Shown: piece after piece, positions 20,793 through 31,578 of the stretch
Position numbering within the stretch: position 1 is the stretch's first letter
How the letters are laid out: each line of letters opens with the position of its first letter
Assembly (NCBI GenBank): GCA_035400625.1
Contig: DAOMZT010000001.1
Span: forward strand, 270,001 to 302,000
Length of the DNA stretch: 32,000 nt
Direction of reading: 5' to 3'
DNA from: an archaeon
Lineage (GTDB): Archaea > Iainarchaeota > Iainarchaeia > Iainarchaeales > CSSED10-239
Program-made: the position numbers and the translations under genes
Notes under the pieces: generated by a model
Database searches by the model: none
What the model saw: the letters and a program-made list of their open reading frames with translations, nothing else
What the model was told of the DNA's origin: nothing

Positions 20793-21398
20793 TTAAAATA
20801 TCAAAAAAATAACAAATAATGGTATTGCAATAAATATGGCCCAAACAACTGGATTCCATCTTATTATTTTTGCACCATCAAGTGGACCAAATGGTATGAG
20901 ATTAAAAAATGCAATCCATAGATTAATTAGAACTCCATAAGTTACAATTATTGCTGGTGCACCTAATAATGCAGCAATAAAAAACAATAAGGCCATTATT
21001 AGGTTAGTGGCTGGCCCAGCAAGAGATATTTTACCATCTTCTTTGATATTGTGTTGTTTACCAAAAATATATACTGCCCCTGGTGCAATAAAAACAACAC
21101 CAAGTAACCCTGCAAAAACAATGCCTGCTATTAAAAATGCTGGCCACATTATAAATCTACCGTGTGCTCCAAGATGTATTGCCATATATTTGTGTGCAAG
21201 CTCATGTGAAATAAAAGAAGTTGCTGTGATTATTAGGCTCAATCCAAACTTCGTTAAAAAATCAGCCCATGTAAAATTAAATTGTTTTGTTGAGATATAA
21301 TCTAAAAGACTATAATTTCCTAAAACAATTGTAAAACATAAAGATATTGCAAGCCATGCAACTAATAGGTCATAAATTTCTGAATTTTTTTTAATCAT
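20793..21398 (-). CDS. Site-2 protease family (M50) zinc metalloprotease
   Basis: 'HELAHKY' (HExxH) lies within a TM helix and is followed by the second M50 motif, 'NLIPFGPLDGAKI'. The protein is polytopic. Confidence 0.8.
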   Translation of the reverse strand: MIKKNSEIYDLLVAWLAISLCFTIVLGNYSLLDYISTKQFNFTWADFLTKFGLSLIITATSFISHELAHKYMAIHLGAHGRFIMWPAFLIAGIVFAGLLGVVFIAPGAVYIFGKQHNIKEDGKISLAGPATNLIMALLFFIAALLGAPAIIVTYGVLINLWIAFFNLIPFGPLDGAKIIRWNPVVWAIFIAIPLFVIFLIF

Positions 21399-24703: not shown

Positions 24704-25585
24704 ATGAGTACTAAAAAAGACAAGGTTGTAAAATCAAAAAAAAAATTAAAAAGTTTATATAGATTATTTATACCTATTGCTCATCTTTTAAGATCTAAAG
24801 AATTTGATGAAAAATTAATGCAAGCAGATATACTTGAAGAACCAGAGGTTTATCTCTCTAGATATTTTTTTTATGCAATATTTATTCCCTTGATTTTAGT
24901 AATCTTATTTTCTGCATTATTGATTGCTTTTCATTATACAGAATATCTTAAAGTTTTATTCATTGTTGGTTTTTCATCAGTATTTATAATATTGATTTAT
25001 GCTTTGGTTAATCCATATATTAAAATCGGAACAAAGGTTGGAGAAATAAAAAATAATTTACCATTAGCAATACTTAGTATGTCTAGTGTTGCAGAGTCTG
25101 GAGCCCCACCAGAAGCTATGTTTCACACATCTACAATGAAGTCTGAAACTCCTAATATCAGCAGAGAATTTGAAAAAATAAATAAATATTTAAGTTTGGG
25201 CTTATCTTTACCACAAGCTATGGAACATGTTTGTGATAAAACTCCCTCTCCTGAGCTTAAGAAATTTTTAATGGAATTAAAATCTAACATAGAGGCAGGG
25301 GGATCTTTACCAGAGTTTATGAAAAAAAAAGCACAACATGCTCAATTCACTTATAAGCTAATGCTTGATAATCAAAATAAAAAAGCAGAGACCTTTGGTG
25401 ACATATATTCTGCAATTGTTATTGCTGGGCCTTTATTTTTGTTTTCTGCAATAATGCTCTTGGGCATGATAGGTGGTGGAGGGCTAGGTGGCTTAAGTGT
25501 TGAAGCGTTATTGGTGATAGGGGTTTTTGGCCTTGTACCATTAGTTAATATTTTATTTATTATTATTTTGCAGTTTATATCATAA
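24704..25585 (+). CDS. Type IV pilus/archaellum platform protein, first T2SSF-domain half (FlaJ/TadB-like)
   Basis: A TM pair is followed by a cytoplasmic helical domain ('LPLAILSMSSVAESGAPPEAMF...LGLSLPQAMEHV...ELKKFLMELKSNIEAGGSL') and further TMs. This is the T2SSF topology and motif pattern. Confidence 0.7.
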   Translation: MSTKKDKVVKSKKKLKSLYRLFIPIAHLLRSKEFDEKLMQADILEEPEVYLSRYFFYAIFIPLILVILFSALLIAFHYTEYLKVLFIVGFSSVFIILIYALVNPYIKIGTKVGEIKNNLPLAILSMSSVAESGAPPEAMFHTSTMKSETPNISREFEKINKYLSLGLSLPQAMEHVCDKTPSPELKKFLMELKSNIEAGGSLPEFMKKKAQHAQFTYKLMLDNQNKKAETFGDIYSAIVIAGPLFLFSAIMLLGMIGGGGLGGLSVEALLVIGVFGLVPLVNILFIIILQFIS

Positions 25586-25596
25586 GAGGAATAAAA

Positions 25597-26409
25597 ATGA
25601 AATTAAGTCCAAGAATGGAATATTTACTTGATGCAGCCGCAAAAGGTGCAATTGGTTCACTTATACTTGGAATACTTTTACTTAGAACAAATTTCTTTAT
25701 ATTTTGTATTTTCCCAACAATCATCGCAATAGGTATTGCTTCAATAGTTTATACTAAAAAAATTAAGTCTCTAGAATCCAATCTATTTGTTTTTTTAGGA
25801 GATCTTAAAAATCTTCTTCAAGGTGGGATGAATATAGTTACTTCTATGGAGGTTCTTTCAGATCATGATTATGGTGCCTTAAACACATATATTAGAAGAA
25901 TAACTGCTCAAATAAAAATAGGTGTGCCATTTGAAACTTCACTTGTTGAAGTTTTTTCAGAAGTAGATAGTCCAATGTTTAATAAGATTGCAAATGTTAT
26001 TGCAGAAACTATGAAACATGGTGGTAATCTAATTAAGATATTTAGTGCGGTAGCCAATTATGTAAAATTAATTGATGAGATGGGAGAAGAAAGAAGGGCC
26101 AAAACTTTTTCTACAGTTTTTTCTTCATATTTTATGTTTTTTATATTTATTGCAATTATTTTAACAATACAGATTGTATTCTTGCCAATGTTAAAATCAA
26201 ATAGCATAACTACTTCGGGCACACCAATAGAAGAAATTCCATTTAATTCCTATTTCTTATATCTTTTGATTATTCAAGCAAGTTTTGCAGGTCCAATTAT
26301 CGGTAAAATTTCAGAAGGTAATGCGATAGCAGGAATAAAACATTCTATTATATTACTTGTAATTTCCATTCCAATCTACATGATAGTTTCAATGTTGTTT
26401 ATTAAATAA
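25597..26409 (+). CDS. Type IV pilus/archaellum platform protein, second T2SSF-domain half (FlaJ/TadC-like)
   Basis: The architecture is the same as the first half ('LGDLKNLLQGGMNIVTSMEVL...IRRITAQIKIGVPFETSL...IAETMKHGGNL'). The start lies 11 nt after the previous stop and has its own GAGG Shine-Dalgarno motif. Confidence 0.7.
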   Translation: MKLSPRMEYLLDAAAKGAIGSLILGILLLRTNFFIFCIFPTIIAIGIASIVYTKKIKSLESNLFVFLGDLKNLLQGGMNIVTSMEVLSDHDYGALNTYIRRITAQIKIGVPFETSLVEVFSEVDSPMFNKIANVIAETMKHGGNLIKIFSAVANYVKLIDEMGEERRAKTFSTVFSSYFMFFIFIAIILTIQIVFLPMLKSNSITTSGTPIEEIPFNSYFLYLLIIQASFAGPIIGKISEGNAIAGIKHSIILLVISIPIYMIVSMLFIK

Positions 26410-26455
26410 GTTAGATTTATAAAAATTATGAAATAAATATAAATAGGATAAAAAT

Positions 26456-26926
26456 ATGTTAAAATTAAAAATTACAAAAAAGGGAATATCTCCACTTATT
26501 GCAACTATTCTTTTAGTTGCTGTATCTTTAGCTCTTGCAGGAATCTTATATTCTTGGGCATCTCATAATGCAAGCAACACTGTATCAAGTGTTACTGATG
26601 GTCAACAGCAACGAATAGAATGTTCTGCAATTAATTTGTTTATAGAAGAAGGCTGTTCTTATGATACAGATACTGGAATTAATCTTATTATAAGTGACTA
26701 TTCAAGTGTAAATATAGATGAGAATATAGAAATTACTGTTGTTGATATAGATAACAGGTCTAAAACAGCAAGCATTCCTTCAAACTTTCAAGGTGGCATA
26801 ATGGCAGTAAACAGTTCTGTTCTTTCTGATCCAAATGCTCTTAATGGGCTTGGAAAAATACAGAGGGTTTATGTGTTTATTAAGCGTTGCCCAGAAAGAA
26901 AAGCAACGACTATGAGTTGTGATTAA
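26456..26926 (+). CDS. Archaeal type IV pilin, Pilin_N (DUF1628) type, paralog 1
   Basis: The class III signal peptide and conserved N-terminus read 'KITKKG|ISPLIATILLVAVSLALAGILYSW'. Cys pairs are C-x10-C after the helix and a C-terminal C-x9-C. Confidence 0.8.
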   Translation: MLKLKITKKGISPLIATILLVAVSLALAGILYSWASHNASNTVSSVTDGQQQRIECSAINLFIEEGCSYDTDTGINLIISDYSSVNIDENIEITVVDIDNRSKTASIPSNFQGGIMAVNSSVLSDPNALNGLGKIQRVYVFIKRCPERKATTMSCD

Positions 26927-26940
26927 AATAGGTTTTATTC

Positions 26941-27426
26941 ATGAAAAAGTTAAAGGCACTTAGTATTTTAATAACTAGCATTTTATTAATTCTTGTTTCT
27001 GTTTCATTAATTATTATTCTCTTGTCCTGGAGTAGAAATTTTACAACAACAAATCTAAATTCAGCAAATGAAGTGATAAATCAAGAATGTGATAAAGCAA
27101 CTATTCAAATTGCCGATTGTATTATTAATAATGATGGAAATGTAGTTTTGGTAATTAAAAATACAAGCACACAATATATCTTTGATTCTTCTGATGCTCT
27201 GTTAGTTTCTATATATAATGATTCTGGTGTTATGGATGCGGAAAAAGAAATAACTTTGTCTTCTGGTTTAACTTGGAATGGTCTAAAAGAAGGTGAGACA
27301 ATTATTGCAAATATTAAACCAGAAACACAGTCTTTAACTTCTGAACCAGGTGCATGGATAAATGTAACTTTAAGATCTACAAATTGTCCGTTAGCTGCTA
27401 CAACATACTATGGTTGTCATAGATAA
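26941..27426 (+). CDS. Archaeal type IV pilin-like protein, paralog 2 (divergent N-terminus)
   Basis: The N-terminus is 'MKKLKA|LSILITSILLILVSVSLIIILLSW'. It shares the body plan of its neighbours: C-x9-C, a 'VVLVIKNTS' strand and a C-terminal 'STNCP...GC'. Confidence 0.7.
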   Translation: MKKLKALSILITSILLILVSVSLIIILLSWSRNFTTTNLNSANEVINQECDKATIQIADCIINNDGNVVLVIKNTSTQYIFDSSDALLVSIYNDSGVMDAEKEITLSSGLTWNGLKEGETIIANIKPETQSLTSEPGAWINVTLRSTNCPLAATTYYGCHR

Positions 27427-27475
27427 GCTTTAAATATCTTTTTATTAATAATATAAATATTTTAATATTTAATTT

Positions 27476-27481
27476 AGGAGG
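27476..27481 (+). promoter_or_regulatory. Strong Shine-Dalgarno (AGGAGG) for pilin paralog 3
   Basis: aggagg lies 7 nt upstream of the ATG at 27489. It is the best ribosome-binding site I noticed in the pilin cluster, where paralogs 1 and 2 have only 'tagg(a)'. An AT-rich spacer of about 60 nt precedes it. Confidence 0.5.
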
Positions 27482-27488
27482 AAATAAA

Positions 27489-27950
27489 ATGAATATTAAG
27501 AAAAAAGCAATAGAGCCAATAGTTGCAACAATTCTTTTAGTCGTAGTTGCAGTTATTTTGGTTGTTATAGTTCTTGCTTGGGGTAAGAATTTTACAAACG
27601 AGGGTTTAAATAAAGCTGGTGGTGTAACTAGTGATAATTGTATGGGTGCAACAATTGCAATTTCAAATTGTGATTGGAATGGCTCAGCAAAAACAACCAC
27701 CTTTTTAATAAAAAACACAAGTGACACATTTACTTTTCCAGCAGATGATTTTACTTGTGGTGTTTTAGAGGATGGAAATATTACAAACAATAACTTAAAC
27801 GGTGCATTAAATCAGACCGCAGCATTAGGTCCTGGAGCACAACAAGTATTAACCTGTTCAGGTACAAACATCGTTGCAGATTCAGTTACCTTAAAAGTAT
27901 GGTCAAAAGCTTGCCCAAATAACGCATCAGCAGATTTAAAACACTGCTAG
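27489..27950 (+). CDS. Archaeal type IV pilin, Pilin_N (DUF1628) type, paralog 3 (candidate major pilin)
   Basis: The N-terminus is 'MNIKKKA|IEPIVATILLVVVAVILVVIVLAWG'. It has C-x9-C, a 'TTFLIKNTS' strand, one extra Cys pair and a C-terminal 'SKACP...HC'. There are six N-x-S/T sequons. Confidence 0.8.
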   Translation: MNIKKKAIEPIVATILLVVVAVILVVIVLAWGKNFTNEGLNKAGGVTSDNCMGATIAISNCDWNGSAKTTTFLIKNTSDTFTFPADDFTCGVLEDGNITNNNLNGALNQTAALGPGAQQVLTCSGTNIVADSVTLKVWSKACPNNASADLKHC

Positions 27951-27964
27951 TTGTTTAAATAAAA

Positions 27965-28426
27965 ATGTGTAAAATTATGATTTCCAAAAAAGGAGTGTCA
28001 CCAATAATTGCAACTGTACTTTTAGTTGTTTTAGCTTTAATATTGGTCGTCATACTTCTTTCTTGGGGTCAAAATTTTATAAATAGAAACACATCTGATG
28101 TGGATAACACTATTGACAGAAAATGCCTAGGTGCAGGAATTACAATAAACAATTGTAATTACAATGATCAAACAAATACTCTTTCTTTTATTATTGTAAA
28201 TTCAGGAAAGGTTAATTTTTCGAAAGACCACAATCTTAATCTTATTCTAATTGATGCAGAAGGCAATCTAGATAATGATAATCAAAACATCATCAATAGC
28301 CAAGCCTTTAATAGATTAGATTCTCAAAAGATAGTAATTGACCACTATGCCGCTACAACACCAATAGATGTGGAAGTAAGAAGCACCCAATGTGTTAATT
28401 ATTTTGCAAAAGTTTCTTGTAATTAG
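27965..28426 (+). CDS. Archaeal type IV pilin, Pilin_N (DUF1628) type, paralog 4
   Basis: The N-terminus is 'MISKKG|VSPIIATVLLVVLALILVVILLSWG'. It has C-x9-C, a 'LSFIIVNSG' strand and a C-terminal 'STQCV...SC'. The ATG at 27977 (MISKKG) is a plausible alternative start. Confidence 0.8.
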   Translation: MCKIMISKKGVSPIIATVLLVVLALILVVILLSWGQNFINRNTSDVDNTIDRKCLGAGITINNCNYNDQTNTLSFIIVNSGKVNFSKDHNLNLILIDAEGNLDNDNQNIINSQAFNRLDSQKIVIDHYAATTPIDVEVRSTQCVNYFAKVSCN

Positions 28427-28926
28427 AATTTTTCTATTTTTAAAAATTGTATCTTTTCTTCCTTATCAACTAAGGCTATAACAAATTTGGCGTTTATGGT
28501 TGTTGCAAGCCTTTCTGATTTTATAATCTGCTTTGTGTAGATTTTTGTGTTTTTGAAAACATCTACAACCATTTCTGTATGAGTGTGTTCGCCAGCCTTT
28601 GATTTTTTATAAACTCTAAAATCAAATCCAAAGATGTTTCCGTCTTTTACCACATAGCCTTTATTCATTAGTTCTTTAAACACAAGATATTTCTCTGAAA
28701 AGTCTGAAATTTCTTTGTTGCATTTTTTTTCTAATTCCTTTTGGCTTATTGCTTTCTTGTTTTCATCAGCAATAGTTATTTTCTTCTTTTCTAGAAAATA
28801 AAGGCATTCAAAAAGATCTAAGTAAATCTCAAGGCCTTTTCTAAAGCCAAAGCCTTTCTGAGTTAATTGGCTTTTTAGATTATTGTCTTTTACAAGCCCG
28901 CGATTTTTTTCTATTATTACTTTCAT
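28423..28926 (-). CDS. endA: tRNA-splicing endonuclease EndA (short, homotetramer-type size)
   Basis: 'NKGYVVKDGNIFGFDFRVYKK...HTHTEMVV' matches the catalytic C-terminal domain pattern (G.KFG.DF.vY....H). Lys is followed by 'FVIALVD'. The length is 167 aa. The stop overlaps the convergent pilin stop by 4 nt. Confidence 0.8.
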   Translation of the reverse strand: MKVIIEKNRGLVKDNNLKSQLTQKGFGFRKGLEIYLDLFECLYFLEKKKITIADENKKAISQKELEKKCNKEISDFSEKYLVFKELMNKGYVVKDGNIFGFDFRVYKKSKAGEHTHTEMVVDVFKNTKIYTKQIIKSERLATTINAKFVIALVDKEEKIQFLKIEKF

Positions 28927-28941
28927 GTTTTTCTTTCTTTT

Positions 28942-29229
28942 TTATTTATATAATGTAAATAAATTTCTATCAACACCATAGAACAACCCAATTCTTACAC
29001 CTGCATCGATCCAGCCATAAGCATAAGAATAAGAGGCTAGTGCCCTTGTAAAGTCGCCTTTTTCTTCTAATACCATTCCATCCTTAAGATAGTTGTTTGC
29101 CATCTCTAGGTAGTTATCTGCCATATCTTTAAGGAAGGACTCGTTTTCTATATTTATTTTTATAGTTGCTAATGCTTTTTCAAGTAATCCTCTATACTTT
29201 ATACAATATTCTTTAACATCTGTATTCAT
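28942..29229 (-). CDS. DUF357-family protein
   Basis: 'YLKDGMVLEEKGDFTRALASYSYAYGWIDAGVRIGL' matches the conserved DUF357 core (..gd...Al....YA.GWLDAG.R.G). Confidence 0.7.
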   Translation of the reverse strand: MNTDVKEYCIKYRGLLEKALATIKINIENESFLKDMADNYLEMANNYLKDGMVLEEKGDFTRALASYSYAYGWIDAGVRIGLFYGVDRNLFTLYK

Positions 29230-29950
29230 TTATTCCATCTCTTTCAATATCATTTAATGTTGCACAGATTATTAAGCTTTGTGGAAAGCTTTTGCATTTT
29301 ATTTTCTTGTATTCCAAAAAGTCAAAAGTAATGATTTCTTGATCAATTCCTGCAACTCCACAAAGTCCAACACACACTACATCTTTTAGTTTCTTATCTT
29401 TTTCATTGTCAATTTCTTCAAGTATCTGGCAAGCCTCAAAAATACTCATAAACTTTTTTTTGTCAGTCTTAATATCAAGAAGGCAAAGAGTATGTGCATT
29501 GTTCTTTAGATTTTCAATTATACAATCATAAAAGCTAGTAGGCCTGTAGTTGCCATCTGGATAGACAATGCTTGTAGTCTTTCCAAACTTATACTCAAAT
29601 AGTCCAGAAATGCCTCTATAGTTAAAGATAGAAATACCTGCAATTATTTTAATATCTATCTTTTTCTTTTTTGCTTCTTCAATCAATGTAAAATGAGTGG
29701 TTGCTGATAATGGGTTGCCAATAACAAGAAGACAGGAGCCATCTTTAAGATATTTTTTTTCCTGTTCCAGTTCCGTTCTGTTCAGTTGCATTATTTTCTT
29801 TTCTATTATCTCTTCTAGTTCTTTTAGGTCTCCTTGTGAGAAGATATTGGTGTAGTTATCAATATACACTTCTGTGCAGTTTCTTATACAATCCATTGCT
29901 TCAAGAGTAAGTTGTTTAGGTTTTAATCCAACTCCGATTATGTAAAACAT
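29213..29950 (-). CDS. dph5: Diphthine synthase (Dph5)
   Basis: The N-terminal 'MFYIIGVGLKPKQLTLEAMDCIRNCTEVYIDNYTN' and 'LLVIGNPLSATTH' indicate the tetrapyrrole-methylase fold typical of Dph5. Confidence 0.85.
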   Translation of the reverse strand: MFYIIGVGLKPKQLTLEAMDCIRNCTEVYIDNYTNIFSQGDLKELEEIIEKKIMQLNRTELEQEKKYLKDGSCLLVIGNPLSATTHFTLIEEAKKKKIDIKIIAGISIFNYRGISGLFEYKFGKTTSIVYPDGNYRPTSFYDCIIENLKNNAHTLCLLDIKTDKKKFMSIFEACQILEEIDNEKDKKLKDVVCVGLCGVAGIDQEIITFDFLEYKKIKCKSFPQSLIICATLNDIERDGINEYRC

Positions 29951-29952
29951 TC

Positions 29953-30348
29953 TTAACTATAAACTCCAATTTCTATATATATCTTATTATTGGAATTATT
30001 AATATACTTTATGGAATTAGAAAGAGTTGTTGTTTTTTCTATGCCAGAGTAATTCATTTCTTTTCTTTTGTTGTTTATTCTAATATAGCCAGGGGTAAGT
30101 GGGAATAGCAAAAGATAGTTTTTTTCTAAAGTTTCAAGATTATCAATTTTAAGATATTGTGCAGTTATTAGAAGGTCATTGATTTTTTGCGACTTTAATA
30201 ATTCAACATTATTTTTTGCTAAATTTTCTGAAGCAATTGTTTGCATGGTTAATATCAAAAGCGAGATAAAGATTAATGCAAAAAGCCCATCAATTACAAA
30301 GATTTGCCCATTATTTGCATTTTGCAAATTCCAAAATTTTAAAGCCAT
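29953..30348 (-). CDS. Small pilin-like protein with putative class III signal peptide (G|Q type), minor pilin candidate 4
   Basis: The N-terminus is 'MALKFWNLQNANNG|QIFVIDGLFALIFISLLILTM'. A single hydrophobic helix is followed by a domain of about 90 aa. It shares the 'GQ-x-x-V-[LI]-D' N-terminus with the upstream ORF. Confidence 0.5.
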   Translation of the reverse strand: MALKFWNLQNANNGQIFVIDGLFALIFISLLILTMQTIASENLAKNNVELLKSQKINDLLITAQYLKIDNLETLEKNYLLLFPLTPGYIRINNKRKEMNYSGIEKTTTLSNSIKYINNSNNKIYIEIGVYS

Positions 30349-30724
30349 TATTAATCACTATTCCTCTTTTTATACTCAATTCAATTTCTGTTGTTTCTGT
30401 TTGATAAATCACAATATCTGATAGTTTGATTCTGCAGATTTTATTTTTTTTAAGTTCTTTTTCAAACACCAATAGAGATCTCAAGTCCAAGATGTTTTGA
30501 TAACAAAGGCTTTGATGATTAATTTCTGTGAATGCCAAGTAGTCACAGTCACTAACCATTTTATCAACAAACAAAAGCAATTCAAGCTTTTCAGTTTCTT
30601 TTTGATTTTCTATTTGTTCTTTAGCATAGTTCTCAAAGAACAACACTTCAAAATATAAAATAAGGATTAGGCACAGAGAAAAGAACAAAACATCAAGTAC
30701 TATTGCTTGCCCCTTTGATTTCAT
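30311..30724 (-). CDS. Small pilin-like protein with putative class III signal peptide (G|Q type), minor pilin candidate 3
   Basis: The N-terminus is 'MKSKG|QAIVLDVLFFSLCLILILYF'. The KGQ junction resembles EppA-type archaeal pilins and TadE-like pseudopilins. It overlaps both neighbouring ORFs, by 32 nt and 38 nt. Confidence 0.55.
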   Translation of the reverse strand: MKSKGQAIVLDVLFFSLCLILILYFEVLFFENYAKEQIENQKETEKLELLLFVDKMVSDCDYLAFTEINHQSLCYQNILDLRSLLVFEKELKKNKICRIKLSDIVIYQTETTEIELSIKRGIVINNGFKILEFAKCK

Positions 30725-30908
30725 GTTTCTCCCATTTTTCTTCCTGATAATATTTTTCTTTTATAATTTCTATATCCCCTTTTACATTTTTGCTTTTTTC
30801 AAACTTTTCTTTAAAGCCAAGATTGACATTCACAAAAAAGCCAAGCACGATAATGATAATTAAAACACACAATATCATTTCAAGAGTAATTATCCCTTTT
30901 TTATTCAA
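30693..30908 (-). CDS. Very small pilin-like protein (71 aa) with a bacterial-style prepilin N-terminus, minor pilin candidate 2
   Basis: The N-terminus is 'MNKKG|IITLEMILCVLIIIIVLGFF'. It has a short basic leader, Gly at -1, Glu at +5 and a hydrophobic helix, followed by a charged tail of about 40 aa. Confidence 0.55.
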   Translation of the reverse strand: MNKKGIITLEMILCVLIIIIVLGFFVNVNLGFKEKFEKSKNVKGDIEIIKEKYYQEEKWEKHEIKGASNST

Positions 30909-31414
30909 GTATATATCACCACTTCTATTGTGTAATTTTTTGGAAAAGTAAAAGTTGTTTTGGAATATGATGTTTTCTGTTCAAAGCCAAGGTATTTGTT
31001 TTTTGCTAGCCCGTTTGTTATAGTATATCTCTTAACATAAACATTTGGCATTGGCCTTAAAACAATGGTTTTTGTTATTTCTTGTAGTTCTAAAAGATTT
31101 ACTTTTTGTTTTTTCTTTGTATTGATATCAATAACAAACCATTCTTCTGTTTTGGTATCAAGACCAGAAAGATAATTTACTACCTTGGTGTTTATGTGCG
31201 AATTTAGTGTTATTGGGTCTGTGTTAGGAATAGCAAGTTCGTGCTTAACCATTTCTTCAAAATTAATTGCTGCACTGTGCTTTTTCGTGCTTTGTGATTT
31301 TACAATTACAAAATCTAGGTTGCTTTCAATTCTTTCATTACCAGCAATAGACAAGAAAATAAGTGTAAACAACAACACTCCAAGACTAAGAAAGCCTTTG
31401 TTTTTTGTAGCCAT
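30905..31414 (-). CDS. Small pilin-like protein with putative class III signal peptide, minor pilin candidate 1
   Basis: The N-terminus is 'MATKNKG|FLSLGVLLFTLIFLSIAG', followed by a beta-rich-looking domain of about 140 aa. It forms an ATGA overlap with the next ORF. Confidence 0.5.
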   Translation of the reverse strand: MATKNKGFLSLGVLLFTLIFLSIAGNERIESNLDFVIVKSQSTKKHSAAINFEEMVKHELAIPNTDPITLNSHINTKVVNYLSGLDTKTEEWFVIDINTKKKQKVNLLELQEITKTIVLRPMPNVYVKRYTITNGLAKNKYLGFEQKTSYSKTTFTFPKNYTIEVVIYT

Positions 31415-31578
31415 TAGATATTTCTTGATTTCTTTCCTTTATTTAACCAGCTGTTTGTTTTTTTTGTGTTTTTGAAACAATCGCCTCTTTGCTTTAAGTT
31501 TTTACAAAAAATCTAACAAATGTTTTTAAATAGCTCTATCTACAATAAATATATTAATATCAAAAAACGGAATAAGCT

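Follow-up and report, generated by a model that had tools for sequence, protein, structure and literature searches.

We analyzed a 32-kb window (C1:270001-302000; positions below are those of the window unless preceded by C1) of an assembly from the archaeal phylum Iainarchaeota, 0.82 Mb in size with 30% GC and 5 contigs, whose minus strand carries a cassette of four short, overlapping genes that we refer to as O1 to O4. O1 (30905-31414, 169 amino acids (aa)) starts with ATG, O2 (30693-30908, 71 aa) with TTG, and both O3 (30311-30724, 137 aa) and O4 (29953-30348, 131 aa) with ATG. By their coordinates, neighboring frames overlap by 4 nt (O1/O2), 32 nt (O2/O3), and 38 nt (O3/O4); these overlaps, the protein lengths and the N-termini are all as reported in an earlier, sequence-only reading of this DNA, which had proposed that the cassette encodes a translationally coupled set of minor pilins. 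The TTG of O2 lies within acTTGA, whose TGA is the stop codon of O1, and GGTGAT stands 6 nt 5′ of it, while GGGAGA stands 3 nt 5′ of the O3 ATG. A TATA-like element read from the sequence (TTAAATAAA, 31438-31446, minus strand) is centered about 28 nt 5′ of the O1 ATG and is a candidate archaeal promoter, from which the cassette may be transcribed as a leaderless or near-leaderless mRNA. Measured against three orthologs, dN/dS values of O1-O4 were 0.11-0.36, compared to 0.07-0.12 for the adjoining dph5 gene, indicating that the four frames are coding and under purifying selection and that they evolve faster than a housekeeping enzyme. O1-O4 are genuine genes.

We compared the cassette across three samples: 16 loci of the window's own family examined for gene order, together with 21 other family genomes searched for O1; 20 cassette loci from other Iainarchaeota families, GC-rich ones included; and, for profile searches, 121 genomes of the phylum, 53 of them high-quality. 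The closest named relatives, judging from the search for related loci and the O4 alignment, were Candidatus Forterrea multitransposorum and Candidatus Iainarchaeum / Diapherotrites metagenome-assembled genomes. Throughout the 16 family loci an Orc1/Cdc6 gene diverges from O1, followed by O1-O2-O3-O4-dph5-DUF357-endA and then convergent pilin genes, with O2 falling under the phmmer cut-off in two loci. The four-gene order was equally clear in the loci from other families, save for one or two GC-rich ones. In these other families the proteins measure about 175-195 aa (O1), 100-120 aa (O2), 150-165 aa (O3), and 115-125 aa (O4), and three further contigs, found by a search for contigs encoding the cassette, showed the identical layout. 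The conserved order that had been anticipated in relatives is thus present both within and beyond the family, and the genes are retained in every related locus examined that keeps the pilin cluster. A literature search found no description of the cassette in Iainarchaeota or Forterrea.

All four window proteins begin with a short charged leader ending in Gly or Ala, and a hydrophobic helix some 20 residues long comes directly after it. The same feature recurs in the family orthologs, in 150 O1 representatives and, for O2, O3, and O4, in about 20 other families. The junction reads [K/R]-[G/A]/hydrophobic (here and below the slash marks the putative cleavage site, and positions are counted from the residue after it), with an acidic residue at +5 in O2, at +6 in O3 and O4, and none in O1. 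Homologs phylum-wide keep this Gly/hydrophobic junction, on whose conservation the sequence-only reading had let its proposal stand or fall. Comparison with hhalign showed that the N-termini are also related to one another, at 83% for O2 and O3 and, with the phylum-wide alignments, at 94.8% over 29 columns for O3 and O4, whose N-termini are homologous. Relatedness ends there, as profile-profile comparison detected no homology among the bodies of O1-O4. Scans of the window's four proteins against Pfam and NCBIfam returned nothing significant, and profile searches with the O1, O2, O3, and O4 alignments found no relatives among PDB sequences, bearing out the initial impression that the bodies belong to no recognized family. 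O1, O3, and O4 lie outside every annotated family, and their database names are all "hypothetical protein". Searching all open reading frames (ORFs) of the same genome with profile hidden Markov models revealed no paralogs of O1-O4, only weak N-terminal matches to class III-like proteins.

In O2, the leader MNKKG precedes IITLEMILCV, placing Glu at +5, and beyond the helix the protein has only a tail, roughly 40 residues long. This Glu (E10) is invariant among 14 orthologs, whose N-terminus reads K-[GA]/Q-I-S-L-E-F in the family and [GA]/Q-x-S-L-E-A in other families. Nine of the 14 match the archaeal Pfam family PF04021 (Class_IIIsignal, DUF361 type; best E 9.9e-7), so that the Glu at +5 stands as originally noted and the bacterial G/xxTLE label attached to it does not. 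The sequence-only reading had likened the N-termini of O3 and O4 to TadE and TadF; TadE (PF07811) matched none of the cassette proteins, and TadF (PF16964) was matched only below its gathering score, weakly by seven of the 14 O2 orthologs (best E 0.0018) and by the window's O2 at E 0.17 (12.3 bits, cut-off 27.3).

In eight of the 20 loci from other families (L057, L062, L063, L064, L066, L071, L073, and L076), O2 has no leader at all. Its ORF begins M-N-S-L-E-A, M-N-S-I-D-A, M-Q-S-Y-E-A, or similar, with an in-frame stop codon directly before the start or a few codons 5′ of it. Seven of these eight proteins have Met at +1 and the acid at +5, the position it occupies in leader-bearing orthologs when counted from the residue after Gly/Ala. 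Such a register is expected if the leader is normally removed after Gly/Ala and if the distance from the N-terminus to the acid matters. By placing the predicted mature N-terminus right after the Gly/Ala, the leaderless orthologs also speak, if indirectly, against an ordinary uncleaved signal anchor, the outcome that would have told against the original proposal. Judged by their sequences, they could be pilin-like proteins that are independent of a peptidase; we know of no earlier description of leaderless, peptidase-independent pilin biogenesis.

O3 and O4 share a slightly different N-terminus. In O3, the leader MKSKG is followed by QAIVLDVLFF, with Asp at +6, and the C-terminal half holds conserved Cys residues. 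The family motif is K-[GA]/Q-x-x-[IV]-x-D, in which Q6 is invariant and D11 nearly so; phylum-wide the motif becomes [KR]-G/x-x-F-S-x-D, with R120, N77, and C136 conserved, and dN/dS is 0.18-0.24. In O4, the leader MALKFWNLQNANNG (ending NANNG) precedes QIFVIDGLFAL, again with Asp at +6, and an in-frame TTG would give the shorter leader MQNANNG. Among orthologs, leaders span 3-14 residues and usually end in K-G or K-A. O4 is the best conserved of the four proteins, with a mean column identity of 53% in the family; its N-terminus reads K-G/[IQ]-x-F-x-I-D-G there and [KR]-G/x-x-x-S-x-E-A phylum-wide, Gln at +1 being confined to the window's genus. Pfam scans of individual O3 and O4 orthologs gave scattered chance matches only. 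We modeled the O1 and O4 monomers with AlphaFold2 (AF2) from 37-sequence alignments. The O4 model (predicted local distance difference test, pLDDT, 83; predicted template modeling score, pTM, 0.63) consists of a single helix over residues 7-65, a second, short one and an antiparallel sheet of four strands. Foldseek returned nothing for it in the PDB at E <0.1, yet the predicted helix of about 59 residues and four-stranded sheet are consistent with the architecture of a type IV pilin.

O1, the largest member, has the leader MATKNKG followed by FLSLGVLLFTLIFLSIAG, and its N-terminal helix is free of acidic residues in all homologs examined. The family N-terminus is [KR]-[GA]/F-x-S, and dN/dS is 0.11-0.23. 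A single O1 ortholog was found in 19 of the 21 other family genomes, and the profile search recovered O1 in single copy from 84 of the 121 phylum genomes and from 41 of the 53 high-quality ones; its absence from the remaining 37 may reflect profile sensitivity or incomplete assemblies, not true loss. Searching 1.84 billion proteins exhaustively with the O1 profile yielded 195 cluster representatives, all of about 165-195 aa, nearly all of which start M-x-x-[KR]-G-[FIL]-[FL]-[SC]-F. The AF2 model of O1 (pLDDT 86, pTM 0.70) has three helices (6-25, 29-60, and 67-83) ahead of a sheet with about seven strands; O1 has no match in Pfam, NCBIfam, or PDB sequences, and Foldseek against the PDB gave nothing at E <0.1. 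In one genome of the Forterrea genus, the O1 ortholog (L018, G015:C1:392908-393396) is broken by a single in-frame TAG, which could be a pseudogene mutation, a sequencing error or a stop codon that is read through.

Beyond the cassette itself, we found a recurrent partner. In distant loci a class III mini-pilin of about 57 aa, reading KA/QISVELIIVLAAVVAIVLLLVSQLQ...KIFxEIDEI, lies convergent to O4. A protein of 130-160 aa that starts GQ-LS-LEFLLL often accompanies it, and a HExxH membrane protein resembling M50 comes next. The mini-pilin was present in 120 of the 121 phylum genomes and is highly conserved, with a mean column identity of 56% versus 31-42% for the phylum-wide O1, O3, and O4 alignments. 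All 64 genomes outside the window's family that carry both genes on one contig had a gap of at most 2.65 kb (median 1.58 kb) between mini-pilin and O1. The N-termini of O2 and the mini-pilin align as well (hhalign 83%). In the window's family the locus is rearranged, and the gap widens to 3.2-4.2 kb in one genus and to 10-11 kb in the window's own. The mini-pilin operon of this genome (C1:311853-312945, minus strand) lies about 11 kb past the window end; it encodes the mini-pilin (C1:312766-312945, minus strand, 59 aa), whose leader of about 9 aa ends in QKA and is followed by QISAEMIILLAAIVAIVLVIITQLQ, a 126-aa protein starting MKG/FVTLEY and a 171-aa HExxH membrane protein. The window also holds an M50-family (HExxH) membrane protease gene (20793-21398, minus strand) that adjoins an NFACT gene. 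In other families the ortholog of this protease sits directly beside the mini-pilin and O1-O4, which suggests that an ancestral locus was broken up in the window's family.

The immediate neighbors of the cassette are, by comparison, local. Directly 3′ of O4 on the minus strand lie dph5, DUF357, and endA (28423-29950), with a gap of 2 nt to dph5 and an overlap of 17 nt at DUF357; dph5 is a TP_methylase-family gene read as diphthine synthase, and endA encodes a tRNA-splicing endonuclease. The seven genes look like one transcription unit with unrelated functions. A functional tie to dph5-DUF357-endA was considered and rejected, since the cassette runs into these genes in the window's family only, whereas elsewhere the convergent mini-pilin follows O4. 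Convergent with the cassette, the plus strand carries a pilin cluster (24704-28426) that comprises a pair of T2SSF platform genes and four genes for archaeal G/[IV]SP-type pilins, one of which (27965-28426) weakly matches ArlF. The platform pair (24704-26409, plus strand; 293 and 270 aa, each with a single T2SSF domain) resembles TadB/TadC and MMP0038/0039 of Methanococcus maripaludis; no ATPase gene adjoins it, and a DRG-type GTPase gene lies just upstream. We considered this cluster as the cassette's partner and rejected that assignment because the two adjoin in the window's family only, the phylum-wide partner being the mini-pilin. No tRNA genes were found in the window.

Components that could process and assemble pilin-like proteins are encoded elsewhere in the genome, which has three A24 peptidases, five T2SSE ATPases and three split T2SSF pairs. 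A core locus resembling that of the M. maripaludis Epd pilus lies 44 kb from the cassette, outside the window (C1:251700-258500). It encodes a T2SSE ATPase, a pair of T2SSF proteins, an EppA-like A24 peptidase of 367 aa, four pilins of the GQ type that measure 59-150 aa, and a further two class III proteins. The peptidase (C1:256577-257680) matches the NCBIfam EppA model end to end at E 1.5e-7 and scores far under the equivalog cut-off. An equivalent ATPase-TadC-TadC-peptidase locus lies 12-24 kb from O1 in four genomes from other families, each complete or nearly so. Separately, we noticed a second cassette in this genome (C1:334345-336038, plus strand), in which four class III-like mini-ORFs overlap, encoding 150, 162, 103, and 163 aa. 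Among the N-termini (KG/QLSIE, KG/QVMLLD, KA/FIFSV, and KG/LFELV) are acid-bearing ones and one acid-less; no ATPase or platform gene lies nearby, and the proteins have no detectable body homology to O1-O4.

Taken together, these data make it probable that O1-O4 are processed pilin-like proteins and that they make up the accessory, or minor-pilin, complement of an Epd/Tad-like filament with the mini-pilin as its body. The original idea of four minor-pilin-like genes under translational coupling is the best-supported reading of the cassette. It draws on the N-terminal motif kept in each ortholog group across the family and about 20 others, on the PF04021 matches of O2 orthologs, on the N-terminal relatedness of O2 to the mini-pilin and of O3 to O4, and on the register of leaderless O2. 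It draws equally on the linkage of O1 to the mini-pilin, on the peptidases, ATPases and T2SSF pairs of the genome, on the core locus near O1 in four genomes, and on the AF2 models of O1 and O4, both of which combine a long N-terminal helix with an antiparallel beta-sheet. The Epd pilus of M. maripaludis is laid out similarly, and minor pilins with class III signals are already an established kind (PMC4858521, PMC4187195).

From this we infer cleavage, incorporation into a filament and a role at its tip or in its priming, and the steps may be pictured as follows. Each protein would enter the membrane via its N-terminal helix, and an A24 prepilin peptidase, for which the EppA-like 367-aa enzyme is the candidate, would cut the short basic leader after Gly/Ala. 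The mature helices of O2, O3, and O4, with their acid at +5 or +6, could then pack together, giving a short filament or an initiation complex. GspK and PilX are the sole members of the bacterial minor-pilin quartets to lack the conserved acidic residue; O1, the only acid-less member here, may likewise sit at the end. The filament body would be built from the mini-pilin, with about 50 mature residues, and its assembly would be powered by an ATPase together with a split TadC-type platform encoded elsewhere. A tip complex of fixed stoichiometry, as the sequence-only reading had envisaged, would fit this scheme.

Several observations weigh against this interpretation. The window's own O2 has Ile at +1, where most orthologs have Gln, and gave only weak sub-threshold matches, none to PF04021; the window's O1, O3, and O4 matched no pilin family in Pfam or NCBIfam. 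In EppA substrates, position +5 is acidic and cleavage is influenced by Gln at +1 (PMC4187195); O1 lacks both features, and O3 and O4 have their acid at +6 instead of the canonical +5. The window's O4 is atypical in having Asn-Asn before the Gly and no basic residue at −2 or −3. Foldseek matched neither the O1 nor the O4 model to a pilin or to anything else significant, and a "pilin fold" is accordingly a statement about secondary-structure architecture. No ATPase, platform or peptidase gene adjoins the cassette, and genomes of the phylum carry 4-6 ATPases. The genomes behind the linkage counts share ancestry, so these counts do not equal independent events.

Some of the same points would be expected if O1-O4 were instead uncleaved, signal-anchored proteins forming a base, stator or alignment complex of the filament machine, like ArlF and ArlG in the archaellum, which have pilin-like N-termini and are not filament subunits. 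Besides this precedent, the acid at +6, the unusual O4 leader and the failure of both models to match pilins all suit such an explanation, and the weak ArlF match of the window pilin at 27965-28426 indicates that N-termini of this kind cross-match. We nevertheless consider it unlikely: a leaderless O2 that starts at +1 with its acid at +5 is hard to explain unless leaders are removed, the Gly/Ala at −1 is conserved phylum-wide in all four groups, none of O1-O4 matched ArlF or ArlG in Pfam or NCBIfam, and the predicted O4 helix and four-stranded sheet would be typical of pilins. That the class III resemblance arises from AT-rich composition, with unrelated small membrane or secreted proteins clustered by genome compaction, we regard as very improbable. 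A loose regular expression for class III N-termini does match 125 ORFs, many of these spurious, out of the 2212 in this genome that encode 50 aa or more, and the direct run into dph5-DUF357-endA shows that unrelated genes can be packed together here. Yet GC-rich relatives retain the motif as well, both its Gly/Ala at −1 and its acid at +5 or +6, so composition is not the explanation; in addition, the gene order and the mini-pilin link hold phylum-wide and profile comparisons recover the N-terminal homology.

A different possibility concerns function, namely that the cassette and mini-pilin build not an adhesive pilus but a short pseudopilus for DNA uptake or secretion, in the manner of ComGC-GG or type II secretion. 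Such a device would make sense in an archaeon that depends on a host and has very limited biosynthesis, and a housekeeping uptake system would be expected to be near-universal and present in single copy, as the cassette is across a phylum whose genomes measure about 1 Mb. The layout of one small major and four minor subunits is also that of ComGC with ComGD-GG and of GspG with GspH-K (PMC8727766). The Com and Tad family matches that point the same way (ComGE, ComGF, and TadF) are weak and far below threshold, however, and no ComEA/ComEC-like partner was seen near the cassette, where no search for one was made. We give this explanation little chance, with the proviso that it is a functional variant of the minor-pilin reading, which sequence alone cannot separate from an adhesive pilus.

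A more specific form of the minor-pilin reading would have an O1 cap and O2-O4 form a heterotetramer that primes and tips the mini-pilin filament, an archaeal counterpart of the bacterial minor-pilin core that is single-copy throughout Iainarchaeota and whose leaderless O2 needs no peptidase in several lineages. We put this forward tentatively, as a possible if somewhat doubtful model. Its interest lies in how archaeal type IV filaments are initiated, a poorly known process, and in whether they possess a tip or priming complex of their own comparable to the bacterial quartets. According to a recent (2026) census, recognizable type IV filament systems are few among DPANN archaea (PMC13705601). 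The DPANN phylum examined here, with genomes of about 1 Mb, keeps a single-copy four-gene cassette, a mini-pilin in 120 of 121 genomes and several ATPase/platform sets, which argues for a central role of such filaments in the life of these cells, which are probably host-dependent, whether in attachment or uptake. Our analysis also defines four unannotated protein families, O1-O4, whose alignments would let annotation pipelines recognize them. If confirmed by experiment, the phylum-wide mini-pilin link, the acid-less O1 and the leaderless O2 variants would add to what is known of such sets.

Three known systems invite comparison. Bacterial minor-pilin quartets (GspH-I-J-K, FimU-PilV-PilW-PilX, and ComGD-GE-GF-GG; PMC7541494, PMC8727766) resemble the cassette in comprising four pilin-like genes in one operon, apart from the major pilin gene; O1 would take the place of the one acid-less member, translational coupling suggests a fixed subunit ratio, and the quartet is far less conserved than the major subunit. 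The leaders here are, in contrast, archaeal and do not show the G/[FM]-T-L-x-E N-methylation motif, and GspK and PilX exceed the cassette proteins by far in size. Neither sequence nor fold comparison detected homology to GspH-K, PilV-X, ComGD-GG, or TadE/F, with ComGE (E 0.053) and ComGF (E 0.76) among the sub-threshold matches; the parallel, striking as it is, is one of functional analogy and not homology. Tad/Flp pili likewise combine a major pilin of about 50 residues with a few larger accessory pilin-like proteins and a split TadB/TadC platform, but use two pseudopilins, TadE and TadF, where the cassette has four genes, and the TadF matches lie below threshold.

The Epd pilus of M. maripaludis, archaeal type IV filament "system 1", has a 74-aa major pilin (MMP1685) with a 12-aa leader and an enlarged EppA peptidase, and its ATPase and two platform genes are encoded apart from the minor pilins EpdA, EpdB, and EpdC (PMC4187195). 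The Iainarchaeota cassette differs in that its four genes keep a fixed order, one is acid-less, two have their acid at +6, and O2 is leaderless in some lineages. It lies 44 kb from the EppA-like gene here and 12-24 kb in the four genomes of other families, and none of O1-O4 matched any Pfam or NCBIfam pilin family above threshold, a comparison that did not include the Epd sequences directly. Against these differences stand several class III accessory proteins of small size, a very small major pilin (74 aa in Epd and 59 aa here), a two-gene platform, an enlarged EppA-like peptidase (367 aa here), substrates with Gln at +1 and an acid at +5, a combination shown here by most O2 orthologs, and components spread over several loci, features that the Epd pilus and the system described here have in common.

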